Assembly (NCBI GenBank): GCA_038087875.1
Contig: CM075987.1
Span: forward strand, 24,616,001-24,680,000
Reading direction: 5' to 3'
Length of the DNA stretch: 64,000 bases
DNA from: Malacoraja senta
Taxonomy: Eukaryota
Both the position numbers and the translations under genes were made by a program. A model generated the notes under the pieces. That model had not been told where the DNA came from and ran no database searches. It saw only the letters and a program-made list of their open reading frames with translations. Every line of letters starts with the position of its first letter. Within the stretch, counting starts at the first letter, position 1. Shown here one piece after another: positions 2,137 to 57,931 of the stretch.

Positions 2137-2999
2137 TTACACAGAACTTAAAATAGTTTCTGCAAACAACCCCGCATTAACAATAGGCCGATGGTAAAAA
2201 TGTTGAAACATCAACTCATTGGACCACCCGGCGGCTGCGAGGATATGGTCGACGGGGCCGTCTTTTGCCCTGGCCGCCGACGTTTCTGCTGCCCTAGCCA
2301 AGTGAGACGTAAAAACATAAGTGTTAATACCAGCAGCTGTTAAGACTTCTTTTATCCATCTGGAAATAGTCTGTATTGAAACTCTCTTGTGTGGTTTCTT
2401 GTGTGTGATCAACAACCCAGTTTCCGTATTCTCAAATTCTTTGTGACCTCAATGTATTGTAATAAATATGTCTTAATACAGAGACATGGATCATTTGGAT
2501 ATGCTGCTAGCATAATTTTAAATCCTGTCACACCTGGCCTAATTTACTTTAGTAGGTCATAGATATAGAATGTAACCTTGTCTTCAGTTACTTCCATACT
2601 GTCTATTTGTAATTTTCCAAGTGTTTGCACTCGTTGTGCTGTCACTCATGCCATAAGCATGAATACTTTCATACTGAGCTTGACCAAAGGTAAAGACACA
2701 CTTGATGACCATTCACGAAGTAGTTTCAGTACCACACTTACATCCCAGATTGTCACGTACCTAGGTTTCGGTGGTTTGGAATTAAAGATTCCTTTCATTA
2801 GTCTGGAAACAATTGGGTGTGACCCAATTGAGTTTCTTTCTGAATCCAGAACCAAATATGAGGACAATGCACTTCTGGCTGAATTAATTGCACTACAACT
2901 CAGACCTTCATCATAATAAAGTTTTGACAGAAATTCTAAACATTTGAAATATCTGCAGTACTTTATTGCACATTCTTTTGTACACAGAACTTTTCCCAT
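2137..2999 (-). pseudogene. DIRS tyrosine recombinase (frameshifted)
   Basis: SAINSARSALS..HPIVSRLMKGIFNSKPPKPRY..WDV in 2646..2999. TISRWIK..FTSH..RAA..ILAAAGWS...F..FY in 2137..2415 carries the YR C-terminal H-x-x-R, W and catalytic Y region. Confidence 0.88.
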
Positions 3000-3150
3000 T
3001 TCTTAATATAAGAAAGGTACTGTTTTTGAGTGCTCTTCCTCCCGGCTGCCGTAAGCATGTCCACAGGATGCTCAGACAGTCCTCGTCCCAGAAAAGGCAT
3101 TCTTAAAACCTGCAAATCATCAAATCCAAACGATGATATAATGGATGTTG

Positions 3151-3498
3151 TTACCCTGTTACAGGGTGCAGCAATAAATTACTCCTTTTTGGGACTTTCA
3201 TCAACATTTGTGTTGTTAATTCTAATATCAACAGATACCATGGCTGTATAGGCCAATCTGGTACTACCAATACCCTTGAAGCAGCATCTTGCCTGATTTT
3301 AAGCAAACATTGGCTTATGAGGCAGAAAGGTGGAAATATATATGAAAACATACCACCCCAATGTAGCGAGAAAGCATCAATCGCCACTGCTCCTGGATCT
3401 GGTTTCCATGAGACATATCTCGATAGCTGATGATTCAAGTCGATGTCAGTCATTCCAAATCTGATTACTATATCATTGAATACCTCTTGATTCAACAT
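3151..3498 (-). pseudogene. DIRS methyltransferase-like (MT) domain remnant
   Basis: AIDAFSLHWG..YIFPPF..VLVVPDWPIQPWY, the motif typical of the DIRS1 domain downstream of RNase H. Confidence 0.8.
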
Positions 3499-3663
3499 CC
3501 ATTCTTTATTATCATGGAACTTTTCGTGACCAGGTGTCTGCTATCGTGTTCATTCTACCTGGTAGATAGATAGCTGAAATCCAAATGTTCTTTTCAATAC
3601 ACCAAGATCGAAGTTGATTTAACCATTTTGTCACATGACACCGACTTAATTCCACCCATATCA

Positions 3664-4531
3664 TTAATATAGGCAACTACTGTTGTGTTTATTAATTTGA
3701 ACTTGAACCTTCCTTTTAGTTGTGTTAGAACCATAAGCTTGGAGTCCATAGAAACCTCCTAAAAGCTCCAAATAGGTAATTCCCCATGTCTGCAGTAACA
3801 CTAACTTTTCCTGATTCCATCTGCCTCCGCAGCTCCATGTTAAGTCAGTTGCACCCCATCCTAGTGCACTGGCATCAGTTTGTAATATCATGGAAGGTTG
3901 TTCAATCAGCACTTTGCCTGAACTGCTTGAGACATGTAGAATCCAACACTTCAGCTTAGAAACAGCATTTGTTGTTACTTGCATGGTTCTATCAAAATGA
4001 CCAGCATTTATTCTCAGTGCCTGTTCTTTAATTCTCTGCAGCTGTTGATAATGTAATGGTCCATACTGGACTGCTGGGAATCTACTAATTTTCCCAGTAC
4101 TCGAGCCACCTGTCTGATTAGAGGTTTTTGCTCGTTTAACAGATTACTGCAATCTTTAATCAACTCCACCCTTTTTTCACTGGGCAAAGTAATTTGCATT
4201 TGGGCTAAATCAATTGTGAACCCCAAATAATAATCGAGGTACATGTTTTTAACCTTGATTTCTTTGGATGAATTTAGAAACCCCCAAACTTTCAAAAGTT
4301 TGATTTTATTACTGCAACCGATGCTTCTGTTGACTGTTTTGTCCTTCCTATAATCAGGACATCATCCAGGTATGCCATTAGTACATGCCCCTGGCTCTCA
4401 GCAACCCCAGAATTGATTTTTATAAATATTCTGGAAGGGAACGTTAACCCTTTAGGCAGAGCTTTGAACTGCCCTAATTGGTTCATCCATGTACATTTAA
4501 AATACTTCATATCTTGCAAGTGAACAAACAC
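3664..4531 (-). pseudogene. DIRS reverse transcriptase / RNase H (frameshifted)
   Basis: QFKALPKGL..YLDDVLI (RT, 4292..4531), YLGFTID (4014..4295), QTDASALGWGA..ITYLEL (RNase H, 3664..3984). Confidence 0.88.
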
Positions 4532-4741: not shown

Positions 4742-6150
4742 TCATAATTTGGATTGAAATCCTTGTATATTATTCAGAATTACCACATCTGAAGTAATCT
4801 TCTTCCAATGTTTATAGAAGAGACGTAATCTGCCTCCAACTTCTGGACTTAATCCAGTTAGTATGTTCCCCTGAGAACCAGGTCCACCTACCTCTTGAGT
4901 CATTTGAGTATTTTGAGATCCCTGGATTCTCCCGGAAGCACAACCACTTGTCCTTACTCCCGCTGCAGGCCGCCAGCTACGTCCCTGCGTTGATGAGCGA
5001 CTTGGTCCTGGTCTAGGATCCGTATGACATCTGAAAGGATACTTCCTCTTTACAGACTTTGCAACCATTGATGTATTTATCAATCCTGTTTTCGCTTCAT
5101 CTTCCAACTCTTTAATACGTCTCCCGAGATCTCTCCAAAGAGTAAGTTGGGTAATTGTATATTACTTGGTTTGCAGAGTGCTGCGAATTTCGGATTCATA
5201 GTAGACCGTATAGCACTTTCCTCAGATAATTGATCTCGAAGTGGGTGCTGCATAGCAACCCCAGTGCTTGCTGATGCAACTTCGTCATCTTTTGGTTGTT
5301 ACCTGCTATTCTGGTAAAAGCAGTTATTCCAGAACCCAGCAGCTTTAATATTCTCTGCAACTGATTCCAGATAATTTGATTCACTGCTGCTGCTTTCAGC
5401 AACCCACAGTTACTTCTTGCAGTCTCATCCATTTCCTGCTGTTCCAGCTAATGGTAAACCAAGTAATTTATTAAGGAGGCCAGTTCTTCTCCTAATGGCT
5501 CTCCTGACCCTGACGGGGCAGCGAATCCTACTGCCAGGGGTGGAACATCTGGCAGCTGCCGTTCATCGCCTTGTACAGCCTCACCGTCAGAGTCGGGGTC
5601 TGAAATCTCATGACCTGTAGCACGCTCCTCATTCCTGAGGGTGCATTCCATCAGCCCTGAGCCAGGTGCTGTTAAGCTGCTCCTGCAGCTTGGATTACAG
5701 TACACTCCTTCCTGAGTGAACTTTGCTCCAACAGCCTATGAAAAAGGCTTTCTATTTGGGCAATACGCTCGAAAGCAGTATCTAGCCCTGTACCAGGAGT
5801 TGTTTGAGCTGTTTCCAGCAGCTTGGCTTTCAGAACACTCCTCTCTGAGTGAACTTTGCTCCAACAGCCTATGTAAAAGGCTTTCTATATGGGCAATACG
5901 CTCGAAAGCAGTATCTAGCCCTGGAGCTTCTTCATTGCCTGGGACTCCCTCCGTTGGGATTTAAACTTTGTCTTTTGCCCGACAGGCACTGACTGTGTTT
6001 TCACCAGCCCCAGGTCCACAGTCGCTATGCTCACCGCTGGCGACTGTACCGGGGTTTAGAGGTGGTTGGTCTCTAACCGCGGACTCCCGACTTTCCCGAC
6101 TTCTGTCGGCTGTGTCGCACGCCTCTTCCCCCTGTCCGTTTTTTCCATGG
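4742..6150 (-). pseudogene. DIRS gag-like ORF remnants and start of pol
   Basis: Position upstream of RT. VGGRLRLFYKHWKKITSD (4742..5107) is typical of the DIRS pol N-terminus. Gag pieces are broken by frameshifts. Confidence 0.6.
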
Positions 6151-10161: not shown

Positions 10162-10720
10162 GTGCTCGTGAGACCACTCCTGGAGTATTGTGTGCAGTTT
10201 TGGTCTCCTAATTTGAGGAAGGACATTCTTGCTAATGAGGGAGTGCAGAGTAGGTTCACGAGGTTAATTCCCGGGGTGGCGGGACTGACATCTGATGAAA
10301 GAATGGAACGACTGGGCTTGTGTTCGCTGGAATTTAGAAGGATGAGAAACATGTCAAATTCTTAAGGGATTTGACAGGCTAGATGCAGGAAAAAATGTTC
10401 CCCATGTTGGGGGAGTCCAGAACCAGGGTCACAGTTTAAGAATAAGGGGTAAGCCATTTAGGATTAAGATGAGGAAAAACCTTTTCACCCGGAGAGTTGT
10501 GAATCTGTGGAATTCTCTGCCACAGAAGGCAGTGGAGGACAATTCATTAGATTTTTCAGGAGAGAGTTAGATAGAGCTCTTAGTGCTAACGAATCAAGGG
10601 ATATGGGGAAAAGCAGGAACGGGGTACTGATTTTGGATGATCAGCCATGATCATATTGAATGGTGGTGCTGGCTCAAAGGGCCGAATGGCCTACTCCTAG
10701 ACCTATTTTCTATGTTTCTA
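10162..10720 (+). mobile_element. CR1 LINE 3' fragment
   Basis: VRPLLEYCVQFWSP..EGVQSRFTRLIPG, CR1 3' UTR and (TTTCTATG) tail. Confidence 0.88.
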
Positions 10721-10973
10721 TGACCCAAAACGTCCCTTATTCCTTTTATCCAGAGATGCTGTCTGAACTGCGGGATGACTGAATAAGTGTTGGTGGTAGA
10801 AACAAGGAACTGAAGATGGTGGTTTATAACAAAGATAGACACAAAGTGCTGGAGTACCTCAGCGGGTCAGGCAGCATCTCTGGAGAAAAAGGATGGGTGA
10901 CGTTTCGGGTTGGGACCCTTCTTTTGACAGACCCGAAAGGTCACCTATCCTTTTTCTCCAGAGAAGCTGCCTG

Positions 10974-11196
10974 ACAATAGACAATAGACAATAGGTGCAG
11001 GAGTAGGCCATTTGGCCCTTCGAGCCAGCACCGCCATTCAATGTGATCATGGCTGATCATCCCCAATCAGTACCCCGTTCCTGCCTTCTCCCCATATCCC
11101 CTGACTCCACTATCTTTAAGAGCCTTATCTAGCTCTCTCTTGAAAGTATCCAGAGAACCTGCCTCCACCGCTCTCTGAGGCAGAGAATGCCACAGA
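10974..11196 (-). mobile_element. CR1 LINE 3' fragment nested in a Penelope-derived element
   Basis: Reverse complement of the 290-500 sequence with (GACAATA)n tail. The host element resumes at about 11196. Confidence 0.85.
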
Positions 11197-11694
11197 CCCG
11201 CTGAGTTACTCCAGAATTTTGTGTCGAAGTGCTAATGGTATTTTGCTATGAATGAGATGTTGACTGGTTCTTTCAGGCGAAAGAGGCCATGACAATGTTC
11301 GAAGGACAGCAACAAACTTCCAACGAACAAAACTGTAACTGAAACGGCCTGCTTTCTCAGTGCAGGTTGTGTGCTCTCACTGTGAGCAAGGGGATCATGA
11401 CAGAAGCCTCCTCGTGGCGATCCCTGGAAGCGACGACGCCATGCACACTGTGACGCGTCGGGCGACAATTCTGTCAACATGTCGGACGACGACAGATGCC
11501 AACAGCGAGCTACATCGTCTGACACACCAACGAACGAACTGTGAGCAAAATGGCTGTCCCCTTTCCCGAGATGAAAACCATGACTCTATTGAGTGTAGAG
11601 CGATTCATGTTCTCCTGTGAGCCGAGAAGATTTCCTTTGATTTGTGTTTTCCCCCCAAAAAAGGTCAAACATGAAACACAAAACTTGGCCACGT

Positions 11695-12072: not shown

Positions 12073-12214
12073 CCTGAAGATGGACACAAAATGCTGGAGT
12101 AACTCAGCGGGACAGGCAGCATCTCCGGAGAGAAGGAATGGGTGACGTTTCGGGTCGAGGCCCTTCTTCAGACTAGAAGTCTGGGGTCAAGTATAGAGCG
12201 TTCACGTCGCGACC

Positions 12215-13962
12215 TGCTATTGAATAACTACTTTGGTTCCGTCTTCACTAAGGAAGACATAAATAATCTGCCGGAAATAGCAGGGGGCCGCGGGTCAAAG
12301 GAGATGGAGGAACTGAGTGAAATCCAGGTTAGTCGGGAAGTGGTGTTGGGTAAATTGAATGGATTAAAGGCCGATAAATCACCAGGGCCAGATAGGCTGC
12401 ATCCCAGAGTACTTAAGGAAGTAGCTCCAGATATAGTGGATGCATTAGTGATAATTTTTCAAAATTCTTTAGATTCTGGAGTAGTTCCTGAGGATTGGAG
12501 GGTAGCAAACGTAACCCCACTTTTTAAGAAGGGAGGGAGAGAGAAAACGGGGAATTACAGACCAGTTAGTCTAACCTCGGTAGTGGGGAAACTGCTAGAG
12601 TCAGTTATTAAAGATGGGATAGCAGCACATTTGGAAAGTGGTGAAATCATTGGACAAAGTCAGCATGGATTTACGAAAGGTAAATCGTGTCTGACGAATC
12701 TTATAGAATTTTTCGAGGATGTAACTAGTAGAGTGGATAGGGGAGAACCAGTGGATGTGTTGTATCTGGACTTTCAGAAGGCTTTCGACAAGGTACCACA
12801 TAAGAGATTAGGATACAAACTTAAATCACACGGTATTGGGGGTTCAGTATTGATGTGGATAGAGAACTGGCTGGCAAACAGGAAGCAAAGAGTAGGAGTA
12901 AACGGTCCTTTTCACAATGGCAGGCAGTGACTAGTGGGGTACCGCAAGGCTCAGTACTGGGACCCCAGTTATTTACAATTTATATTAATGATCTGGACGA
13001 GGGAATTGAAAGCAACATCTCCAAGTTTGCGGATGACACTAAGCTGGGGGGCAGTGTTAGCTGTGAGGAGGATGCTAGGAGACTGCAAGGTGACTTGGAT
13101 AGGCTGGGTGAGTGGGCAAATGTTTGGCAGATGCAGTATAATGTGGATAAATGTGAGGTTATCCACTTTGGTGGCAAAAACGGGAAGGCAGACTATTATC
13201 TAAATGGTGGCCGATTAGGAAATGGGGAGGTGCAGCGAGACCTGGTTGTCATGGTACACCAGTCATTGAAAGTAGGCATGCAGGTGCAGCAGGCAGTGAA
13301 GAAAGCGAATGGTATGTTGGCCTTCATAGCAAGAGGATTTGAGTATAGGTGCAGGGAGGTTCTACTGCAGTTGTACAGGGTCTTGGTGAGACCACACCTG
13401 GAGTATTGCGTACAGTTTTGGCCTCCAAATCTGAGGAAGGACATTATAGCCATAGAGGGAGTGCAGAGAAGGTTCACCAGACTGATTCCTGGGATGTCAG
13501 GACTTTCATATGAAGAAAGACTGGATAGACTTGGCTTATACTCGCTAGAATTTAGGAGATTGAGAGGGGATCTTATAGAAACGTACAAAATTCTTATGGG
13601 GTTGGACAGGCTAGATGCAGGAAGATTGTTCCCGATGTTGGGGAAGTCCAGGACAAGGGGTCACAGCTTAAGGATAAGGGGGAAATCCTTTAAGACCGAG
13701 ATGAGGAAAAACTTTTTCACACAGAGAGTGGTGAATCTCTGGAACTCTCTGCCACAGAGGGTAGTTGAGGCCAGTTCATTGGCTATATTTAAGAGGGAGT
13801 TAGATGTGGCCCTTGTGGCTAAAGGGATCAGGGGGTATGGAGAGAAGGCAGGTACGGGATACTGAGTTGGATGATCAGCCATGATCATATTGAATGGCGG
13901 TGCAGGCTCGTAGGGCCGAATGGCCTACTCCTGCACCTATTTTCTATGTATCTATGTATCTA
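12215..13962 (+). mobile_element. CR1 LINE, 5'-truncated, RT ORF with one frameshift near 12905
   Basis: KSPGPD, NYRPVSLTS, QHGF, LDFQKAFDKV in frame 1. SGVPQGSVLGP and FADD in frame 2. CR1 3' UTR and (ATCTATGT)n tail. Confidence 0.95.
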
Positions 13963-19224: not shown

Positions 19225-20560
19225 AGACAGTGGAGATGGTTATGAAATATTGCAGCAGGATCTTGATCGGTTGGGCAGGTGGGCTGAGGAATGGTTGATG
19301 GAATTTAATACAGAGACATTTGAGGTATTGCATATTGGAAGGTCTAACAAGGGCAGAACTTAGACAGTGAATGGTAGGGTTTTGTGGAGACTTGTAGAGC
19401 AGACTCCTACAGTAGGAGTCAGGTACATAATTCCTTGAAAGTAACATCACAGGTAGCTAGGGTGCTCAAACGGCTTCAGGCACATTGGTCTACATCAGTA
19501 AGAGTATTGAGTGCAGACGTTGAGAGGTCATGTTGCAGTTGTATAAGATGTTGGTGAGGCCACATTTAGAGTATTTTGTTCAGCTTTGGGCACCACATTA
19601 TAGTAACGATGTTGTCAAGCTGGAAAAGGTGGAAATAAGATTCACAAGAATGTTGCCAGGTCTTGAGGACATGAGCTATAGGGAGTGGTTGACCAGGCTA
19701 GGGCTTTATTCGTTGGCGTGCAGGTGGATGAGGGGTGATCTTATAGAGGTGTACAAAATTATGAGGGGTGTACATCAGATAAATGCACAGTCTTTTGCCC
19801 AGAGTAGGGGAATTGAGAACCAGAGGACATAGGTTTAAGATGATGCAAGAAAGATATTATAGGAACTTGAGGGGTAACTTTTTGACACAAAGGGTGGTGG
19901 GTGAATGAAACAAGCTTCCGGAGGAGGTAGTTGAGGCTGGGACTATTGCAACGCTTAAGAAACATTTAGACAGGTACATGGATAGGACAGGTTTAGATGG
20001 ATATGAGCCATTCCCACACTGACCTTTCTGTCCTGGGCCTCCTCCATTGTCAGAGTGAGAACCAGCGCAAATTGGAGGAACAGCACCTCATATTTTGCTT
20101 GGGCAGCTTACACCCCAGCAGTATGAATAGTGACGTCTCTAATTTCAAGTACCCTTGCTTTCCCTCTCTCTCCATCCCTCCCCCCTTCCCAGTTTTCCGA
20201 CCAGTCCGACTGTCCTCGACTACATTCTATCTCTGTTTGCTTTGTCGTTACCTTGTCCGAGCTAACGATGACCTATTCTACATTTTCCTTGATTTCCGCC
20301 CCCTTTGTCTCATTTTCACACCTTGCCCTCCCTTATCTCTGTATCTCCCTCTCCCCTGACCGTCTGAGGAAGGGTCTCTTCCCGAAACATCACCCATTCC
20401 TTCCCTCCAGAGAAGCTGCCTGTCCCGCTGAGTTACTCCAGCATTTTGTGTCTATTTTGGGGGCCAAACGCAGGGAAGTGGGACTAGTGTAGATGGGGGC
20501 AAGTCGGTCGGAGTGGGCAAGTTGGCTGTAGGGCCTGTATTCACATTGTATGCCTCTGTG
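19225..20560 (+). mobile_element. Older CR1 (HER1-like) LINE 3' fragment interrupted by a Penelope-like element
   Basis: MLQLYKMLVRPHLEYFVQLWAP..RFTRMLPG..RGDLIEVYKIM at 19530..19832. The 3' UTR resumes at about 20460. Confidence 0.85.
20007..20457 (+). mobile_element. Penelope-like retroelement 3' end (GIY-YIG endonuclease C-terminus plus pseudo-LTR)
   Basis: HSHTDLSVLGLLHCQSENQRKLEEQHLIFCLGSLHPSSMN matches the R..E...I..L.SL.P.GMN C-terminus of PLE GIY-YIG domains. Confidence 0.85.
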
Positions 20561-20905: not shown

Positions 20906-21605
20906 ACATAGAAACATAGAAAATAGGTGCAGGAGTAGGCCATTCGGCCCTTCGAGCCTGCACCGCCATTCAATATGATCATGGCTGATCATCCAACTCA
21001 GTATCCTGTACCTGCCTTCTCTCCATACCCCCTGATCCCTTTAGCCACAAGGGCCACATCTAACTCCCTCTTAAATATAGCCAATGAACTGGCCTCAACT
21101 ACCTTCTGTGGCAGAGAGTTCCAGAGATTCACCACTCTCTGTGTGAAAAATGTTTTTCTCATCTCGGTCCTAAAGGAATTCCCCTTTATCCTTAAACTGT
21201 GTGACCCCTTGTCCTGGACTTCCCCAACATCGGGAACAATCTTCCTGCATCTAGCCTGTCCAACCCCTTAAGAATTTTGTGAGTTTCTATAAGATCCCCC
21301 CTCAATCTTCTAAATTCCAGCGAGTACAAGCCGAGTCTATCCATCTCTGGAACTCTCTGCCACAGAGGGTAGTTGAGGCCAGTTCATTGGCTATATTTAA
21401 GAGGGAGTTAGATGTGGCCCTTGTGGCTAAAGGGATCAGGGGGTATGGAGAGAAGGCAGGTACGGGATACTGAGTTGGATGATCAGCCATGATCATATTG
21501 AATGGCGGTGCAGGCTCCAAGGGCCGAATGGCCTACTCCTGCACCTATTTTCTATGTATCTATGTATCTATCCAGTCTTTCTTCATATGAAAGTCCTGAC
21601 ACTCC
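20906..21605 (-). mobile_element. CR1 3' fragment with an oppositely oriented CR1 3' end (21344-21566) inserted in it
   Basis: Duplication tctatcca at 21336-21343 and 21567-21574. The host sequence resumes after the insert. Confidence 0.88.
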
Positions 21606-25693: not shown

Positions 25694-28236
25694 CATAGAA
25701 ACATAGAAACATAGAAAGTAGGTGCGAGAGTAGACCACCAGGCCCATCGAGCCCGCACCGCCATTCGCTCATGGCTGAACACTAAACAGACACCCTTACC
25801 CACAAACAGTAGACACAAGACACAGAACACAAGACACTACCCTCCCCTTTATATCGCTATCACCCCTCTCCACCCCAAGAACCGCGTGATCTCCTGGGGG
25901 AGGCAAAAAACCGGATAAAAACCCAGGTCCAATTCGGGAAAAAAATCCGGGAAATTCCTCTCCGACCCCAATCCAGGCGATCGACACTTGTCCAGGAGAT
26001 CACTCAGGTCTTACTATACTAACCCTACCTAGGTCCATATCCCTGCCCTCTCCCCGTAGCCCCTTATCCCCTTGGCAGCTAAACAACCATCTATTTTAGA
26101 CTTAAATATATTTAATGTTTCTGCTTCCACTGCTCCCTGGGGCAGTGAATTCCATAAATTAACCACCCTCTGGGTGAAGAAGTTCTTCCTCATCTCAGTT
26201 TTAAAAGAGCCCCCTCTTATTCTACAACTATGTCCCCTAGTTCTAGTTTCCCCGATCATTGGGAACATCCTCGGTGCATCCACCCAATCAAGGCCCCTCA
26301 CGATCTTATATGTTTCAATGAGATCGCCTCTCATTCTTCTAAACTCCAAAGAGTAGAGTTCCAGCCTACTTAACCTTTCCTCATATGTCAATCCCCTCAT
26401 TGCAGGAATTAATCTTGTAAACCTTCGCTGCACTGCCTCCAGGGCCAGTACATCCTTTCTTAAGTATGGACCCCAGAACTGTACACAGTATTCCAAATGT
26501 GGTCTCACTAATACTGTGTACAGCTGCAGCAAGACCTCCGTGTTTTTATACTCAATCCCCCTAGCAATAAAGGCCAAAACTCCATTGGCCTTCCTGATTG
26601 CTTGCTGCACCTGCATACTAACTTTTAGTGATTCATGTACTACTACCCCTAGATCCCTTTGCGTTGCATTACAACGCAGCTCCACCTCATTTAGAAAATA
26701 ACTTGCCCTATCATTTTTTTTCCCAAAGTGAATGACTTCACATTTATTAGTATTAAATTTCATCTGCCAAGTTGTTGCCCACTCACCTAGCTTATCTATA
26801 TCCTTTTGCAGACTCTTCCTATCCTCCTCATCCCCTACTTTTCCTCCCATTTTTGTATCGTCCGCAAATTTTGATATATTACACTTGGTTCCCTCCTCCA
26901 AATCGTTTATATAAATTGTGAACAACTGGGGTCCCAGCACCGACCCTTGCGGAACCCCGCTAGTTACCGGTTGCCATCCCGAGTATGAACCATTTATCCC
27001 CACTCTCTGCTTCCTATTTGTTAGCCAATCCTCTACCCATGCTAATATATTACCCCCAATCCCATAATTTTTTATTTTTAGCAATAGTCTCTTATGTGGC
27101 ACCTTGTCAAAAGCCTTTTGGAAGTCCAAGTATACCACATCCACCGGTTCCCCTTTATCCACCCGGGTTGTTACTTCCTCAAAGAATTCGAGCAGATTCG
27201 TTAAACAGGACTTCCCCTTCACAAAACCATGCTGGTTCTGTCCGATGAAGTCATGTTTATCCAAGTGCCCCGTTAGTGTTTCTTTAATAATTGTCTCTAA
27301 CATTTTACCCACCACCGATGTTAGACTAACCGGTCTATAGTTACCCGCCTTCTGTTTACTTCCTTTTTTAAATATAGGTGTTACATTGGCCATTTTCCAA
27401 TCCACTGGGACCGTTCCTGCCTCCAGGGAGTTTTGGAAAATTATCACCAATGCATCCACAATCCCCACCGCTATCTCCCTCAAGACCCTTGGATGTAATC
27501 CATCAGGCCCAGGGGATTTATCCTCCTTCAGTCTCATTAATTTCCCTAATACCACCTCCTTGGTGATCTTAATAGTATTTAGCTCCTCCATTCCTACCGC
27601 CCCCTGTTTATCCAGCGTTGGAATATTTTTTGTGTCTTCTATGGTGAAGACTGATACAAAATACTCGTTTAATGCCTTTGCCATTTCCATGTTCCCCACC
27701 AACAACTCTCCAGTCTCACCCTCCAATGGACCAACGTTCACCTTAGCCACCCTTTTTCTTTTTATATAGCTATAAAAACTCTTACTATTAGTTTTTATGT
27801 TGTTCGCTAAATTCCTTTCATAGTCTATTTTCCCCGTCTTAATTAATCTCTTAGTTATTTTTTGCTGACCTTTAAATGCTTCCCAATCCTCTACCCTCCC
27901 ACTATCTCTAGCTACCTTATATGCCCTTGCCTTCAGCCGAATACTATCCTTTATAGTTTTACTGAGCCATGGCTGACTGTTCTTTCCCTTACCCCTTTTT
28001 TTCTTCATAGGAATAAATTTTTCTTGAAGGTTATACAGTAGATCCTTAAACGTACACCACTGCTCATGTACCGTCTTATTCTTGAGTCTGCTATCCCAGT
28101 CAACTTTGATCAGCTCAGTCCTCATACCTTCATAATCCCCTTTATTTAGACTAAGTACCCTAGCCTGAGTTTCAACCTGCTCTCCTTCTATTTGAATATG
28201 GAATTCGACCATATTGGTATCACTTGTTCCCAACGA
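25694..28236 (-). mobile_element. Young CR1 LINE, 5'-truncated, inserted in an older CR1 3' end
   Basis: 7-bp duplication tagtgta at 25687-25693 and 28237-28243, (TTTCTATG)n tail and uninterrupted ORF2. Confidence 0.95.
26029..28233 (-). CDS. CR1 ORF2 (reverse transcriptase), 734 codons open, N-terminal endonuclease lost by 5' truncation
   Basis: KSPGPDG, NYRPVSLTS, QHGF, YLDFQKAFDKV, SGVPQGSVLGP, FADD and CR1 C-terminus with no stops or frameshifts. Unlikely to be expressed as a full protein. Confidence 0.9.
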   Translation of the reverse strand: MGTSDTNMVEFHIQIEGEQVETQARVLSLNKGDYEGMRTELIKVDWDSRLKNKTVHEQWCTFKDLLYNLQEKFIPMKKKRGKGKNSQPWLSKTIKDSIRLKARAYKVARDSGRVEDWEAFKGQQKITKRLIKTGKIDYERNLANNIKTNSKSFYSYIKRKRVAKVNVGPLEGETGELLVGNMEMAKALNEYFVSVFTIEDTKNIPTLDKQGAVGMEELNTIKITKEVVLGKLMRLKEDKSPGPDGLHPRVLREIAVGIVDALVIIFQNSLEAGTVPVDWKMANVTPIFKKGSKQKAGNYRPVSLTSVVGKMLETIIKETLTGHLDKHDFIGQNQHGFVKGKSCLTNLLEFFEEVTTRVDKGEPVDVVYLDFQKAFDKVPHKRLLLKIKNYGIGGNILAWVEDWLTNRKQRVGINGSYSGWQPVTSGVPQGSVLGPQLFTIYINDLEEGTKCNISKFADDTKMGGKVGDEEDRKSLQKDIDKLGEWATTWQMKFNTNKCEVIHFGKKNDRASYFLNEVELRCNATQRDLGVVVHESLKVSMQVQQAIRKANGVLAFIARGIEYKNTEVLLQLYTVLVRPHLEYCVQFWGPYLRKDVLALEAVQRRFTRLIPAMRGLTYEERLSRLELYSLEFRRMRGDLIETYKIVRGLDWVDAPRMFPMIGETRTRGHSCRIRGGSFKTEMRKNFFTQRVVNLWNSLPQGAVEAETLNIFKSKIDGCLAAKGIRGYGERAGIWT

Positions 28237-28626
28237 TAGTGTAGATGGGACATGTTGGTCGGTGTGAGCAAGTTGGGCCGAAGGGCCTGTTTCTACGCTG
28301 TGTACCAGTTATGAATTTACATCCTGTTTTTACTCTTCTTACAGTTTGATGATATTTCTTCCCCTCTTCTTAGACGGAAAGTACACAAAGTGTAACAAAT
28401 AACAGCAGGATTCAGAGATTGCTGAATCGCATAGCTTCAAATCATGAGAGGAATAGATTGGGTAGATGCACAGTAGGGGAATCAAGGTCCAGAGGACATA
28501 GGTTTAAGGTGAGGGGGGAGGAAAGATTTAATAGGAACCTGAGGGTTCCAGGCACACAAAGGGTGGTGGGTGTATCTAACGAGCTGCTGGAGGAGGGAGT
28601 TGAGGCAGGTTCTTTTGCAACGTTGA

Positions 28627-30065: not shown

Positions 30066-30410
30066 AGACAGACACAAAAAAGCTGGAATAACTCAGCGGG
30101 ATGGGCAGAATCTCTGGAGAGAAGGAATGGGTGACGTTTCGGGTCGAGAACCTTCTTCAGGCTGGTTAGGGATAAGAGAAACGAGAGAGATAGACGGCGA
30201 TGTGGAGAGATAAATAACAATGAATGAAAGATATGCACAAAGTTAACGATGATAAAAGAAACAGACGATTGTTAGCTGTTTGTAGGGTGAAAATGAGAAG
30301 CATTTTCTTCAGAGCTTCTCTCCAGAGATGCTGCCTGTCCCGCTGAGTTACTCCAGCTTTTTGTGTCTATCTTCGGTTTAAGCCAGCATCTGCAGGTCCT
30401 TCTTACACAT
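30066..30410. mobile_element. Penelope-derived palindromic element
   Basis: Long minus-strand pseudo-LTR arm followed by a plus-strand arm. Confidence 0.78.
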
Positions 30411-30925
30411 AGTGTCTTGAGAAGACTGTGCCTGAAGGGGTTTGTAGATATTGGGAATGGTTATATTGCGGAAGGTTTCAGCAACAACCAAGAGGAGTTG
30501 CTGTATCGGGAGCCGGTGCAGACCCGTGCGAGCACAGAATGTGTGAACCAGATGCTGTGAGTTCGGATCTGAACAGCAGAGAGGAATTATAATTTGTTTC
30601 AAGGGCCATCATGTCGAAGGGCCATCATGTCGTTCTTTGCAGCGATCTCATCAATTACATCCTTCAGCCTTGTCTTTGCCGCCTGCAAAGAGACTCCCGG
30701 GTTCAATCCTGACCCCGGGTGCTGCCTGTGTGGAGTTTGTACGTTTTCCTTGTGACTTGCGTCGGAAGGAATTGCAGATGCTGGTTTACACCGAAAATAG
30801 ACACAAATGCTGGAGTAAATCAGCGGGACAGGCAGCATCTCTGGAGGGAAAGAATGGGTGACGTTTCGGGTCAAGACCCTTCTTCAGGCTGGTTAGGGAT
30901 AAGAGAAACGAGAGAGATAGATGGC

Positions 30926-37310: not shown

Positions 37311-38165
37311 TAGAAACATAGAAAATAGGTGCAGGAGGAGGCCATTTGGCCCTTCGAGCCTGCACCGCCATTCATTGTGATCATAGATGATCATCCACAA
37401 TCAGTAACCCGTGCCTGCCTTCTCCTCATATCCCTTGATTCCGCTAGCCCCTAGAGCCCTATCTAACTCTTTTACATTCATCCAGTCAACTGGCCTCTAC
37501 TGCCTTCTGTGGCAGAGAACTCCACAAATTCACAACTCTCTGGGTGAAAACGTTTTTTCTCATCTCAGTTTTAAATGGCCTCCCATTTATTCTTGGACTG
37601 TGTCCCCTGTTTCTGGACTGGCCCAACATTGGGACCATTTTTCCTGCATCTAGCTTTCCAGTCCTTGTATAATTGTAGGTAGACAAAAGTGCTGGAGAAA
37701 CTCAGCGGGTGCAGCAGCATCTATGGAGCGAAGGAAATAGGCAACGTTTCGGGCCGAAACCCTTCTTCAGACTGGTGGAGGGTAGGGTGTGGGGGGGGGG
37801 GGGGGGGACGGGGAGAAGAAAGGAGAAAGGAAGAGGAGGAGCCAGAGGGCTGAGGGAGAGCTGAGAAGGGGAGGAAACAGTATGGGCTACCGGAAATTGG
37901 AGAAGTCAATGTTCATACCGCTGGGGTGCAGACTGCCCAAGCGGAATATGAGGTGCTGCTCCTCCAATTTCCGGTGGTGCTCACTCTGGCCATGGAGGAG
38001 GCCCAGGACAGAAAGGTCAGATTCGGAATAGGAGGGGGATAATTGTATAGGTTTCTATAAAGGTCCCTCTCATCCTTCGAAATCCCAGTGAATACAAGCC
38101 CACTCTTTCCAATCTTTCATCATATGACAGTCCCGCCATCCCGGATATGAACCTCATGAACCAAT
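37311..38165 (-). mobile_element. CR1 3' fragment interrupted by a Penelope-like element
   Basis: LDAGKMVPMLGQSRNRGHS..FTQRVVNLWSSLP. The host resumes at about 38040. Confidence 0.82.
37677..38039 (-). mobile_element. Penelope-like retroelement 3' end (GIY-YIG C-terminus plus pseudo-LTR), second subfamily
   Basis: The minus strand translates to SESDLSVLGLLHGQSEHHRKLEEQHLIFRLGSLHPSGMNIDFSNFR*, followed by ctgaagaagggtttcggcccgaaacgtt. Confidence 0.87.
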
Positions 38166-39138: not shown

Positions 39139-39397
39139 TTGTTTCCTAAGCCTGCTTGAAAAAGAAATGTTTTTTACTGAAAGTTCCCGGCATAACCTAC
39201 ATTGTTGGGTGGAATCACCAAAGCAGGTCATTTGAAGGGTTGAACAATTCTACTGGACAAATCAAACAACAGCCCGTGAGTGTATGAAATAATAATCCAC
39301 TGAGCAAGCCACTAGGTGCTGGATGAATTCAACGGAGCAGGCAGCATCTGTGGAGGCAATGGGCAGACGACATTTTGAAATGGGACCTTTCTTCAGA

Positions 39398-39609
39398 CTG
39401 AAGAAGGGTCATAAGCTGAAACATCGTCTGTAGAAGGGTCCAAATCTGAATCGTCACCTGTAGATGGGTCTCTCAACCCAAGACGTGGTCTGGAGAAAGA
39501 TCTCAAACCAAAACACTGTCAGTTGAAGGGTCCCAAACCGAAACGTTACCTGTAGATAGGTCCCAACCCAAAACCTCGTCTACAGAAAGGTCCCAACCCA
39601 AAATGTTCT
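39398..39609 (+). repeat. Tandem array of seven ~30-nt degenerate hammerhead-core units inside an old Penelope-derived palindrome (39315-39710)
   Basis: Units start at 39398, 39428, 39458, 39490, 39520, 39550 and 39580. Approximate consensus CTGWAGAAGGGTCYCAACCCRAAACGTC(GT/AC). Confidence 0.8.
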
Positions 39610-39942
39610 CTCTCCATTCCCTCTGCAGATACAGATGTTGGCGGACACACTGAGTTCCTCCAGTACATTTTGTTTCACTCAAGATGCCAGCACCTGCAGT
39701 TTATTTAGTCTCTAATAACCCACTCAAATTGATTCAGGATATGAACAACTTGTGTTGCAAAGTTAATGGCGATATGTGTAGGAAAGAACTGCAGATGCTG
39801 GTTTAAATCAAAGACAGACACAAAATGCTGGAGTAACTCAGCAGGACAGGCAGCATCTCTGGAGAGAAGGAATGGGTGACGTTTTGGGTCAAGACCCTTC
39901 TTCAGACTGATTCTTCAGAATGTGTCTACCTGACAATACATA

Positions 39943-49343: not shown

Positions 49344-49870
49344 TTTAGAAGGATGAGAGTGGATCTTGCAGAAACATATACAATTCTTAAGGGATTGGAC
49401 AGGCTAGATGCAGGAAAAATGTTACCGATGTTGGGAGAGTCCAGAACCAGGGATCACAGTTTAAGAATAAGGGGTGGGCCATTTAGGACTGAGATGAGGA
49501 AACCATTTTCACCCAGAGAGTTGTGAATAGAAACATAGAAAATAGGTGCAGGAGGAGGCCATTCGGCCCTTCGAGCCAGCACCGCCATTCATTGTGATCA
49601 TGGCTGATCGTCCCCTATCAATAACCCGTGCCTGCCTTCTCCCTGAATCTGTCGAATTATCTGCTGCAGAAGGCAGTGAAGGCCAATTCACTGGATATTT
49701 TCAAGAGAGAGTTAGGTTTTGCTCTTTGGGCTAACAGAATCAAGGGATATGGGGAAAAGCAGGAACGGGGTACTGATTATGGATGATCAGCCATAATCAT
49801 ATCGTATGGTGGTGCTGGCTTGAAGGGCCGAATGGCCTATTCCTGTACCTATTTTCTACGTTTCTATGTT
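49344..49870 (+). mobile_element. CR1 3' fragment with a nested inverted CR1 tail (49529-49643)
   Basis: Duplication tgaat at 49524-49528 and 49644-49648. Confidence 0.85.
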
Positions 49871-52153: not shown

Positions 52154-53086
52154 ATGTAACCAATCTACAATTATTATTTCAGAATGAATGCTAATGGTCT
52201 ATTAATACATTTATCTTTTGACTGCGGGTTTTGCACGGAAAATGACAGACACCGCTTATTTTAAATAGAAGCACCAACACTTAAAATAGATAATTGCAAA
52301 AATAATATTTTCCAAGTAAAACAATCACGGAATCAAAATTCCATATTACCCCATGAGTAAATAATATTAATAGTTTTAAGTTTCAACCTGAATTGTTTCT
52401 ATTTGCATTTAATAAATGTCTTCAGTCTGACCCATAAATGAGTTAGTTATCTTTGTTGATTTTACTGTTGTGTTTTTTGGAAAGTCAGTTAACATCCATA
52501 AAATTAATAGAACATCCATGAAACTAATATTTCAATGTTGAGATACAGTCTTTACTTCACATTGTCAATTGGATTGGAAATAACAATCAAGGGAACCCAT
52601 CAATCCTTTACCATGGGTCTGAAGAAGGGTCTCAACCCAAAACATCACCCATTCCTTCTCTCCAGAGACGCTGCCCGTCCCGCTGAGTCACTCCAGCATT
52701 TTGTGCCTACCTCAAATTTAAACCAGCATCTGCTGTTCTTTCCTGCACAATCCTCTATCATGTATCTGTGCACTGTGGCCAGCTCGATTGTAACCATGTG
52801 TAGTCGTTCCGCTGAATGGTTAGCATGCAACAAAAGCATTTCTGGAGAGAAGGAATGGGTGATATTTCGGGTCACCCATTCCTACTCTAAAGAGATGCTG
52901 CCAGTCCCGCTGAGTCACTCCAGCATTTTGTGTCAATCTTCGGCTTAAATCAGCATCTGCAGTTCCCTTCCGACACAAAAGCTTTTCACTGTACCTCAGC
53001 ACACGTGACAATAAACTCAAAACTCAAACTCAATTTAAATCTGCAATAGTATTTAATTATGGTAAAAAAATAATAATTTCGTTTTA

Positions 53087-53428
53087 AGGTAGACAAAAGT
53101 GCTGGAGAAACTCAGCGGGTGCGGCAGCATCTATGGAGCGAAGGAAATAGGCAACGTTTCGGGCCGAAACCCTTGGGTTTCGGCCCGAAACGTTGCCTAT
53201 TTCCTTAAGGGTTATTTCCTTAAGGGTTGCCTATTCCTTTAAGGGTTTCGGCCCGAAACGTTGCCTATTTCCTTAAGGGTTATTTCCTTAAGGGTTGCCT
53301 ATTCCCTTAAGGGTTTCGGCCGGAAACGTTGCCTATATCCTTCACTCTATAGATGCTGCTGCACCCGCTGAGTTTCTCCAGCACTTTTGTCTACCTTCGA
53401 TTTTCCAGCATCTGCAGTTCCTTCTTAA
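53087..53428. mobile_element. Penelope-derived palindrome with internal 68-bp tandem duplication
   Basis: gggtttcggcccgaaacgttgcctat recurs at 53175, 53243 and 53311. Confidence 0.85.
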
Positions 53429-54747: not shown

Positions 54748-56352
54748 CAGTGGCTTGCAAAAGTTTTCATACCCCTTGAACTTTTCCACATTTTGTCACA
54801 ACCACCAACGTAAATGTATTTTATTGGGATTTTATGTGATAGATCAACACAAAGTGGCGCACAATTGTGAAGTGGAAGGAAAATGATACATGGTTTTCAA
54901 ACTTTTTTACAAATAAAAAACTGAAAAGTGTCGTGTGCAAAGGTATTCAGCCCCCCTGAGTCAATACTTTGTAGAACCACCTTTCGCTGCAATTACAGCT
55001 GCAAGTCTTTTGGGGTATGTCTCTACCAGCTTTGCACATCTAGAGACTGATATTTTTGCCCATTCTTCTTTGCAAAATAGCTCAAGCTCAGTCAGATTGG
55101 ATGGAGAGCGTCTGTGAACAGCAATTTTCAAGTCTTGCCAGAGCTTCTCAATTGGATTTAGGTCTGGACTTTGACTGGGCCATTCTAACACATGAATATG
55201 CTTTGATCTAAACCATTCCATTGTAGCTCTGGCTGTATGTTTAGGGTTGTTGTCCTGCTGGAAGGTGAACCTCCGCCCCAGTCTCAAGTCTTTTGCAGAC
55301 TCTAACATGTTTTCTTCCAAGATTGCCCTGTATTTGGCTCCATCCATCTTCCCATCAACTCTGACCAGCTTCCCTGTCCCTGATGAAAAAAAGCATCCCC
55401 ACAGCATGATGCTGCCACCACCATGTTTCACAGTGGGGATGGTGTGTTCAGGGTGATGTGCAGTGTTAGGTTTCCGCCACACATAGCGTTTTGCATTTAG
55501 GCCAAAAACTTCAATTTTGGTCTCATCTGACCAGAGCACCTTCCTCTACATGTTTGCTGTGTCCCCCACATGGCTTGTGGCAAACTGCAAACGGGACTTC
55601 TTATGGCTTTTTTTCAACAATGGCTTTCTTCTTGCCACTCTTCCATAAAGGCCCGATTTGTGGAGTGCACGACTAATAGTTGTCCTGTGGACAGATTCTC
55701 CCACCTGAGCTGTGGATCTCTGCAGCTCCTCCAGAGTTACCATGGGCCTCTTGGCTGCTTCTCTGATCAATGCTCTCCTTGCCCGGCCTGTCAGTTTAGG
55801 TGGACGGCCATGTCTTGGTAGGTTTGCAGTTGTGCCATACTCTTTCCATTTTCGGATGATGGATTGAACAGTGCTCCGTGAGATGTTCAAAGCTTGGGAT
55901 ATTTTTTTATAACCTAACCCTGCTTTAAACTTCTCCACAACTTTATCCCTGACCTGTCTGGTGTGTTCCTTGGGCTTCATGATGCTGTTTGTTCACTAAT
56001 GTTCTCTAACAAACCTCTGAAGCCTTCACAGAACAGCTGTATTGATACTGAGATTAGATTACACACAAGTGGACTCTATTTACTAATTAGGTGACTTCTG
56101 AAGGCAATTGGTTGCACTGGATTTTATTTAGGGGTATCAGAGTAAAGGGGGCTGAATACTTTTGCACGCGACACTTTTCAGTTTTTTATTTGTAAAAAAA
56201 TTTGAAAACCATTTTCCTTCCACTTCACAATTATGCGCCACTTTGTGTTGGTCTATCACATAAAATCCCAATAAAATACATTTACGTTTGTGGTTGTAAC
56301 GTGACAAAATGTGGAAAAGTTCAAGGGGTATGAATACTTTTGCAAGCCACTG
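54748..56352 (-). mobile_element. Tc1/mariner IR/DR transposon, Passport-like, full length (1605 bp)
   Basis: TA target duplication. TIRs of about 205 bp (54748-54956, 56147-56352) start cagtggcttgcaaaag and contain an inner direct repeat gtgcaaa(a/g)gtattcag. Confidence 0.97.
54961..55980 (-). pseudogene. Tc1 DD34E transposase, 339 codons with one in-frame TAG (55546-55548)
   Basis: ORFs 55546..55980 and 54961..55539 are in the same frame: ..GDTANM*RKVLWSDETK..QQDNNPKH..SPDLNPIE..KGGSTKY. GRPPK and paired-like HTH in the N-terminus. Confidence 0.95.
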
Positions 56353-56418: not shown

Positions 56419-56660
<242 letters not shown>

Positions 56661-57931
56661 TACATACACATTGTATCCCCAATCCATTGGCCAGAGACAA
56701 CTTCACCTTTGGAAGCTGTGTGAGGGTTTGCCTAACAAGAGTAGGCCTAGTCTGCCACGGCAGGAGATGCAACCACAGATGAAACATTCCCCTGTCTAAG
56801 CAGGACAAGGTCAAAGCTGCACCGTCCTCTCTCTCAGATGGGCGGGTGCCAACCAATCTATGATACATCAATAGTTACCACAAACTCCCAAAACATGGAC
56901 GTGGAGACAATCAGACACGTATTCACACTGAGCCAAAGATACAAACAGGTTGAACATTTGAGCAAAAGCACACGGTTAACAAAGCAGACATTAAAGAAGA
57001 TTTCTTAATATGAAGTGAAGGCAAACAGCAAATACTTTGGGAGTGATTTGCAGAACTTAAAAAAACTTAAATAACCAAAGTTGCAGCTGCCAATGATGGG
57101 GAGAAGTGAATGGAGAGGGATTTTTGCCAGGCCAGCAAAACGTTAAGTTGTTTGTTCTCAGTCAAGCCACAGGGATTTGAAAAGTACACTAAGTACTCCC
57201 TTGTGAATTGAATTCAAACTTTGAGCCATATGCTTAGTTCCATTGCTTGTAAACATTTGCCTAAAACAAAAATTGAGAAAGATAAGGGTTAGTCATTGAA
57301 CAAAACTGGTTCCAATTTATAAGTGTTCCAGGTTTTCGTATGAACACATCAGCTACCGCTTAGAAAACGATGGAAAAAAAAAATGTAATTTAGCCCGAAG
57401 AACTATTCAGACTCCGTAATTGAAGCAAGATTTCACTGGTGGAGGGGATGAGATTGTCTTGTCTAAAAGAAAGAATAAACAAACTTTTCTTCCGTGAGAG
57501 GCAGGAACTTGAATTGTCTGAGAGATCAACTAGTGAGCGATGTCCGCAATCCATTACACTTATGTGTTTTGGCTAAAATTGAATTAATTAATTGCCTTGG
57601 CAAGATCACAAACATGGCTTTGGGACCATTCCAAAATCCCATTGAGTCATACAGTGTGGAAACAGGCCCCTCGGCCCAACTTGCCCACACCGGCCAACAT
57701 GTCCCAGCTACACTAGTCAGTCCCAGGTACACTAGTCAGAAAATGTGAGGTGCTTCCGATATGTGAATTGCTGATCATATTTTTTTCCTTCTAACAGTAT
57801 TGAAGTAGTTAAAGATGCCATCTTTCGAAATGGTACTTTAGACCATGGACTCATCTGCTATTAGGTTAAAGAAAATCCCTGACGTTATTTAGGGAACAGT
57901 TAACTGGTCAATATATCCTCCTAAACAACAC

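Follow-up and report, generated by a model that had tools for sequence, protein, structure and literature searches.

A tandem array of hammerhead-ribozyme cores within a palindromic Penelope-like insertion, probably a transposon-derived minisatellite

We analyzed a window of 64,000 nucleotides from Malacoraja senta (assembly GCA_038087875.1, contig CM075987.1, positions 24,616,001 to 24,680,000 of the forward strand), in which positions 39398-39609 hold a tandem array of minimal hammerhead-ribozyme cores. The reading that best accounts for this array, and that we consider probable, is a neutral minisatellite derived from a Penelope transposon by a microhomology slip. The repeat unit coincides with the ribozyme core, and most of the evidence reported below concerns whether this coincidence reflects the activity of the ribozyme or the position of a short repeat on either side of it.

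The array is composed of seven head-to-tail units of ~30 nt, which start at 39398, 39428, 39458, 39490, 39520, 39550 and 39580. Unit 3 measures 32 nt because of a 2-nt insertion, and the remaining six measure 30 nt each. When the insertion is taken out, the identity of the array with itself at lag 30 is 0.69, while that of 2000 base shuffles averaged 0.26 and never exceeded 0.40. The seven tandem units of ~30 nt described in an earlier sequence-only reading of the same DNA are thus borne out. Tandem Repeats Finder, the check that had been proposed there, did return the period of 30, but only over the first 2.4 copies (39398-39470, 79%, score 83), because the units are ~32% divergent. We also searched the 64-kb window with a degenerate motif of the core-to-core junction, allowing up to three mismatches, and obtained three matches, all within the array, where 0.00 were expected. 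The linkers between the units are, in order, gt, ac, gt, gt, ac and gt, so that Watson-Crick-complementary dinucleotides border units 2, 3, 5 and 6, exactly as had been claimed. The seven units and their departures from the hammerhead core are the following:

39398-39427 (+): unit 1, with the native 5' end and all invariant core bases; helix II has 3 of 5 pairs and the helix III palindrome is broken
39428-39457 (+): unit 2, A6 to T and A15.1 to T; linker ac
39458-39489 (+): unit 3, A6 to T, G12 to A and A14 to G; the cleavage-site base is G
39490-39519 (+): unit 4, A6 to G, G12 to A and U16.1 to C; orthologous contigs retain G12
39520-39549 (+): unit 5, U4 to A and A6 to T; linker ac
39550-39579 (+): unit 6, A6 to T and G12 to A
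39580-39609 (+): unit 7, G5 to A, A6 to C and G12 to A; continues into the right arm of the host element

The parent family of the unit is dispersed throughout the window. A fuzzy search for the core returned 34 cores, four in the array and 30 outside, and the left arm of the host element adds one more, which brings the further cores to 31. In total, 63 fragments of the family occupy 5,510 of the 64,000 bases. We aligned 26 of the 31 dispersed cores, after dropping five with indels or truncation in the 5' core. The majority bases of these copies are C3 U4 G5 A6 N7 G8 A9, G12 A13 A14 A15.1, U16.1 and H17, each shared by 18 to 26 of the 26 copies, and the majority core has an extra A ahead of a 5-bp helix II, a palindromic 15.2-16.2 and no loop 3. 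When helix II, the short helix I and the palindromic 15.2-16.2 were scored in 21 copies, 85% of the cells were paired, compared to 6-51% in slid controls. Covariation among 21 closely related dispersed cores returned measures at or below those of shuffles and no two-sided change, and the structure is therefore unsupported by covariation. The Rfam hammerhead models matched neither the window nor the array nor an intact family copy; since the intact control copy is also missed, the null result on the array says little.

Two protein fragments place the family in its genomic context:

19997-20149 (+): C-terminal fragment of a GIY-YIG endonuclease, 72% identical to the C-terminal part of P0001, ~215 nt upstream of core 20364 (+)
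37893-38039 (-): second GIY-YIG C-terminal fragment, with 82% identity over 49 aa to P0001, ~120 nt upstream of core 37770 (-)

P0001 is a little-skate protein with a sub-threshold GIY-YIG match (E 0.008); the corresponding value for P0004 is E 0.0009. The occurrence of these fragments upstream of cores 20364 and 37770, which belong to sister subfamilies of that of the array, ties the family to Penelope-like 3' ends. We found no full Penelope reverse transcriptase among the 13 scanned of the 64 ORFs of the window. The family core motif had 0 matches in viral and 0 in prokaryotic genome collections, as expected for an animal repeat. The core, the helices and the GIY-YIG context of the family confirm the identification of the unit as a Penelope-type minimal type I hammerhead, which had been advanced from the sequence. 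In particular, the family has the same CUGANGA and GAAA boxes as the minimal hammerheads described in metazoan Penelope-like elements (Cervera and De la Pena 2014, PMC4209133), and shares with them the extra base before helix II, G10.1-C11.1, the palindromic 15.2-16.2, the absence of loop 3, the short helix I and the occurrence as many dispersed single copies and close opposite-strand pairs. The tandems described in that work lie ~3 kb apart or form opposite-strand pairs, whereas here seven bare cores, six of them without A6, follow each other head to tail with 2-nt linkers. Elsewhere in the family, the minus-strand cores at 30131-30160 and 30858-30887 have the same upstream flank ~730 nt apart, which suggests a local segmental or partial-tandem duplication.

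The element that hosts the array is one old palindromic insertion, composed of the following parts:

39290-39301 (+): left target-site duplication, 12 nt, AT-rich, 11 of 12 identical to 39713-39724
39302-39397 (-): left arm, an inverted tail-less copy of the Penelope-like 3' end that pairs with the right arm
39369-39396 (-): eighth hammerhead core, within the left arm, with G12 lost and 2 of 5 helix II pairs; GTCTG stands on either side, 30 nt apart
39610-39682 (+): right arm, the family 3' flank with a 6-nt local insertion
39683-39712 (+): tail of ~30 nt, present in the right arm only; it aligns to the tail of a younger copy, and the left arm ends short of it
39713-39724 (+): right target-site duplication, partner of 39290-39301

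The palindrome had already been recognized, with arms at about 39315-39397 and 39610-39710. It is real, but the bounds of the insertion are corrected to 39302-39712, between the two copies of the 12-nt duplication, and the left arm, which had been described without mention of a core, contains one on the minus strand (39396-39369). The left and right arms differ at 24 mismatches in 69 nt, and the whole element folds into the expected hairpin (z = -4.0). Penelope insertions are described as having an inverted pLTR, a palindromic junction, an optional tail and a target-site duplication (Arkhipova et al. 2013, PMC3846280; Craig et al. 2021, PMC8557442). Similarly, the element at 39302-39712 has an inverted tail-less arm, a direct arm with a tail of ~30 nt, a 12-nt duplication and a palindromic centre, so that the inverted arm, the one-sided tail and the target-site duplication that mark a Penelope-type insertion are all present. 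Unlike the insertions described in those two papers, this copy has no ORF and the start of its direct arm is expanded sevenfold. Further copies of the family in the window are likewise arranged back to back, and their centres vary. In three palindromes the fold-back point is CAG-N-CTG (8367/8369, 34472/34474 and 39396/39398), with a hammerhead core starting on both strands at the centre, and palindrome centres that fold back elsewhere lie at 10923, 18566, 22746, 36641, 39012, 43643, 52871, 54497, 58711 and 59682.

Within the array, only unit 1 out of seven has the complete invariant core, while units 2-7 have two to four core defects each. Across the units, helix II retains 2-4 of its 5 pairs. 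The position of A6 is occupied by T, T, G, T, T and C in units 2-7, and by A in unit 1 only. This base is kept in 25 of the 26 dispersed cores and in none of the six downstream units (P-value = 8e-6, Fisher test), although most of the dispersed copies are of a more recent date than the array, and this difference in age favours a low value in the test. At the array's own non-CpG divergence of 0.143 (19 of 133 sites), the probability of at least four identical transversions at A6 in six units is ~2e-5. The absence of A6 from all downstream units, compared to its retention in the dispersed copies, indicates a founding loss rather than later decay, and the amplified unit would have lacked A6 from the start. 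The founding T could alternatively be one point mutation that preceded the amplification. Changes at A6, including that to U, would leave the hammerhead with low activity. Low activity is documented for the change of A6 to C (PMC3088659); we found no account of the effect of A6U itself in the literature, and the argument on A6 leans on A6C and on general knowledge. The copy in the array is probably dead as a ribozyme, as had been proposed from the loss of A6 or GAAA in most units. That A6 was lost by decay, as this proposal implied, does not agree with the comparison to the dispersed cores.

The boundaries of the unit are marked by a short repeat. In the element's own left arm, each end of the core carries GTCTG, with a spacing of exactly 30 nt between the two. 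When we measured the exact repeat at a 30-nt lag in 18 single copies, it was 5 nt long in one, namely the element's own arm, and 1-3 nt long in the other 17. Short flanking repeats are known to seed minisatellites. At 39363, a G>A change present in ~86% of the family depth on the left arm makes the flank read CTGTCC, that is, with T after GTCTG, and the right arm retains T after GTCTG.

The array may be explained by the following series of events. A Penelope-like element would have left a short palindromic insertion with an inverted tail-less arm, a direct arm with its tail, and a 12-nt target-site duplication. In its subfamily, the GTCTG that lies before and into the hammerhead recurs exactly 30 nt on, just past the cleavage site. 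During copying of the sense strand, a polymerase would have passed the second GTCTG and the T that follows, slipped back to the first GTCTG and continued, thus yielding one 30-nt duplicate in which T replaces the catalytic A6. The unit without A6 would then have been amplified to seven copies, probably stepwise, through slippage or unequal exchange and perhaps with a block of three units, at the time of the insertion or fairly soon after. Neutral decay, largely by CpG loss, would have followed. We infer the slip itself, the enzyme and the order of the duplications. With this origin, the coincidence of unit and ribozyme core would be due to the microhomology on either side of the core, and not to selection of the core itself. 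The precise match between unit and core, to which the sequence-only reading gave a possible functional cause, is real, but that cause does not follow from it, since a 5-nt microhomology 30 nt apart accounts for the match.

The array has the features of a transposon-derived minisatellite, with a tandem unit of 10-100 nt from the interior of a dispersed element and a short direct repeat bracketing the unit. Transposon-derived minisatellites are common, according to a review whose available part deals with microhomology and slippage in their origin in general terms only (PMC9659126). Like the minisatellites from Alu, B1 and MaLR described there, the array is a short internal piece of a retroelement that was amplified in tandem and decays neutrally; it differs from them in that a ribozyme core happened to be the part amplified.

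We estimated the age of the array from the divergence between its units and from orthologous sequences. Orthologous interior pieces from two other organisms, a small sample that covers parts of units 3-6 only, differ at 11 of 178 sites (6.2%), compared to 42 of 764 sites (5.5%) in the pieces of flank and arm (P-value = 0.72). At this level of comparison the array appears to evolve neutrally, with no extra conservation. The G12 of unit 4 was lost in the source lineage only (39510 A>G in runs X2 and X5), and its presence in the orthologues and loss here are as expected of CpG decay. The divergence between units is 0.32 at all sites and 0.24 at non-CpG sites, and that between the arms is 0.35 (24 of 69) and 0.32 (20 of 63 non-CpG), respectively. 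Judging from these values, the array would date from around the time of the insertion, or from somewhat later, and would long predate the split from the two other organisms (~5.5%). Since the divergence of the units is close to that of the arms, it fits an origin at the insertion and an early later one equally.

The linkers and shared bases of the units bear weak traces of a stepwise amplification. The linker positions are polymorphic across the family in four runs (39367 A>G in 31-41% and 39368 C>T in 38-59% of the depth). As a founder with gt linkers throughout needs two changes to give ac, the ac linkers require block duplication, conversion or a second template. Identity between units is highest at lag 3 (22.25 out of 30; P-value = 0.03 for lag 3 and 0.09 over lags), and the P-value of this block signal is 0.20 to 0.56 when the CpG and linker columns are left out. 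Derived bases shared among units exceed the star model at a borderline level (P-value = 0.02 to 0.14) and lean, weakly, toward stepwise DNA duplication.

The same linkers, together with the exact correspondence between unit and core, had led to the proposal of a multimeric ribozyme cassette. In a cassette that was once functional, neighbouring cores would pair via the palindromic helix III and the alternating linkers would give helix I. This is consistent with a unit that spans the core exactly, with the four units that have complementary linkers, and with the report that monomers of minimal hammerheads do not cleave, whereas dimers and trimers do so weakly (PMC4209133); hammerhead dimer cleavage is also the subject of Lunse et al. 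2017, as cited in a review (PMC6765202). However, A6 is missing from all six amplified units, four complementary units are reached by 3 of 15 distinct linker orders (P-value = 0.2), and both dinucleotides are ordinary alleles of the family. The incomplete helix II and the RNA fold of the array, which is no better than that of shuffles (z = -0.21), also speak against a cassette. The pairing probability of helix II, at most 0.1 within the array, carries no weight here, since it is 0 even for the intact control copy in context. Moreover, the orthologues show no extra conservation, the microhomology accounts for the unit, and a second array in the window omits the first catalytic strand. We consider a functional cassette very unlikely, and this part of the sequence-only reading is not upheld.

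The second array lies at the centre of another palindrome:

53175-53310 (+): second tandem expansion, composed of (34+15+19 nt) twice; the palindrome in whose centre it lies is younger and belongs to another subfamily

The two blocks are identical at 66 of 67 positions, and the arms differ at 5 of 89. None of the units contains CUGAAGA, the first catalytic strand, and expansion at palindrome centres therefore occurs regardless of the boundaries of the ribozyme. Overall, tandem expansions at the centre are found in 2 of roughly a dozen palindromic insertions in the window. In the second insertion (53086-53427), the centre is made up of pieces of 34, 15 and 19 nt that all restart at one point and are doubled as a 68-nt block, as might be left by successive template jumps and a later duplication of the whole block.

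These expansions raise the possibility that the Penelope reverse transcriptase itself added the repeats. In such a process, the enzyme would stall at a fixed point during the insertion and re-prime, repeatedly and in a telomerase-like manner, on a 30-nt template window whose ends are redundant over 5 nt, and the ribozyme would be irrelevant. The position of the array between the target-site duplications, its age close to that of the arms, and a non-CpG divergence between units that is flat across lags (0.21-0.27) are all compatible with this origin. Penelope reverse transcriptases are related to telomerase, self-priming and template jumps have been proposed for them (PMC3846280), and 53175-53310 shows three jump lengths with one restart point. 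On the other hand, re-priming on GTCTG in first-strand synthesis would be expected to keep A6, and the T would need synthesis in the sense direction that halts one base past the homology at each cycle. A single burst alone does not give two linker types. Stepwise copying fits better, although weakly, with the change of G9 to A in units 4, 6, 7 and the left arm and with T8 in units 3 and 6, and the near-identical 68-nt doubling in 53175-53310 looks younger than its arms. Finally, the available part of the work on an anole Penelope reverse transcriptase in vitro reports no repeat addition (PMC11167929); hammerhead cleavage of that element in vitro required protein and was dispensable for insertion. 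Re-priming by the reverse transcriptase is therefore, in our view, unlikely. The idea of reiterative reverse transcription, put forward in the sequence-only reading, is compatible with an array about as old as the insertion, but the shared derived bases weakly favour stepwise duplication. We give a correspondingly low chance to the array being a fossil of telomerase-like repeat addition, that is, a 30-nt window copied seven times by the Penelope reverse transcriptase during insertion. If it were, the palindrome centres of cartilaginous-fish Penelope elements should hold many such footprints, 53175-53310 being another, and they would indicate that telomerase's closest mobile relatives can add repeats processively in vivo.

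A further alternative to the microhomology slip is descent of the array from a mobile subfamily or a 30-nt mini-retrozyme, for example by rolling-circle copying of a small single-junction circle, in which case similar arrays should occur at many loci. One founding junction copied six times would be the outcome of a circular template, and tandem non-LTR retrozymes derived from Penelope pLTRs are reported, including in a cartilaginous fish (10.64898/2026.07.22.740005). Like the array, animal non-LTR retrozymes consist of tandem type I hammerhead units from Penelope pLTRs (PMC7229834; bioRxiv 10.64898/2026.07.22.740005). Those classed as active have two consecutive complete motifs, whereas the array has at most one complete core. 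The reported retrozyme units measure 51-972 bp (10.64898/2026.07.22.740005), compared to 30 nt here, and a unit without A6 would be unable to cut itself out efficiently. We found no second core-to-core junction within the 64-kb window, and no 30-nt step among the 15 joints listed of 71. The metagenome scan for the junction returned one locus, an unrelated GC-rich chance match without a repeat. In run X1, the depth is 53-440 over the interior of the array (33 for the locus itself), compared to 17,500-420,000 over the arms, at an 80% threshold and with short-read contigs, which collapse young tandems and make this a weak test. There is thus no sign of a dispersed family of the array in the 64-kb window or in the depth of four runs, where the interior is low, unlike what is described for retrozymes. 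We regard a mobile array as quite unlikely, somewhat more so than re-priming. According to the sequence-only reading, a locus unique to this site and produced by simple slippage would speak against a functional repeat, and this is found in part, as uniqueness is weakly supported by the window and by the depth of four runs.

In run X2, the depth of the interior contig is ~1.6-1.9x that of the flank contigs, which may reflect a further duplication or only heterozygous flanks; none of the contigs from other organisms extends over the entire array. A contig of the same run on 39584-39663 jumps back 80 nt with 14 letters between, forming a head-to-tail tandem of ~94 nt. It is composed of the core and the 3' flank, is retrozyme-like, and lies at another locus of the X2 organism.

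Palindromes and tandems are in general difficult to assemble, and the array could in principle be an assembly artefact or a chance similarity. However, the units are ~32% different, base shuffles never approach the identity of the array, and 39385-39780 is covered in full, with one difference, by a contig of run X1 (perhaps the source sample). The interior of the array is also represented, at 92-95% identity, in contigs of two other organisms, and on this evidence we rejected an assembly artefact. The probability that we leave to an artefact or a chance similarity is negligible.

Read as a product of microhomology slip, the array is one further decayed minisatellite born inside a retroelement, and as such it matters little. 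It does call for caution, since microhomology can by itself produce a repeat unit that coincides with a ribozyme core. Expanded palindrome centres are, in turn, a pointer to whether Penelope reverse transcriptase re-primes in the manner of telomerase, and to how retrozyme-like tandems originate from pLTRs. We found no description of arrays made only of hammerhead cores in the literature searched, which largely excludes subscription journals; this detail may be unreported, while the kind of array is itself ordinary.

The window hosts several other mobile elements and repeats. Two plus-strand regions, 11379-11475 and 12185-12214, have sub-threshold Rfam matches to the CPEB3 (HDV-like) ribozyme (27.8 bits, E 0.003, and 18.3 bits, respectively), the first upstream of reverse transcriptase fragments at 12103-13865. 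An uninterrupted frame of 759 aa at 26029-28308 (-) contains a reverse transcriptase domain (PF00078, E 2.5e-33), and we take it to be CR1-like. The broken frames at 2646-4361 (-) have, by eye, the look of a DIRS-type retroelement with pieces of RT/RNase H and recombinase; four of these pieces gave no match in Pfam. At 54961-55992 (-) there is a Tc1/Sleeping Beauty-type transposase in two consecutive frames with one stop between them (PF25787, PF01498 and PF13358). Long young inverted repeats of other families, with arms of 80-223 nt that are 82-100% complementary, occur at 20906-21565, 10605-11092, 49527-49867 and 1624-1935. Finally, a 133-nt tandem duplication is found at 5653-5923 and a long GT-rich microsatellite at 56422-56661.
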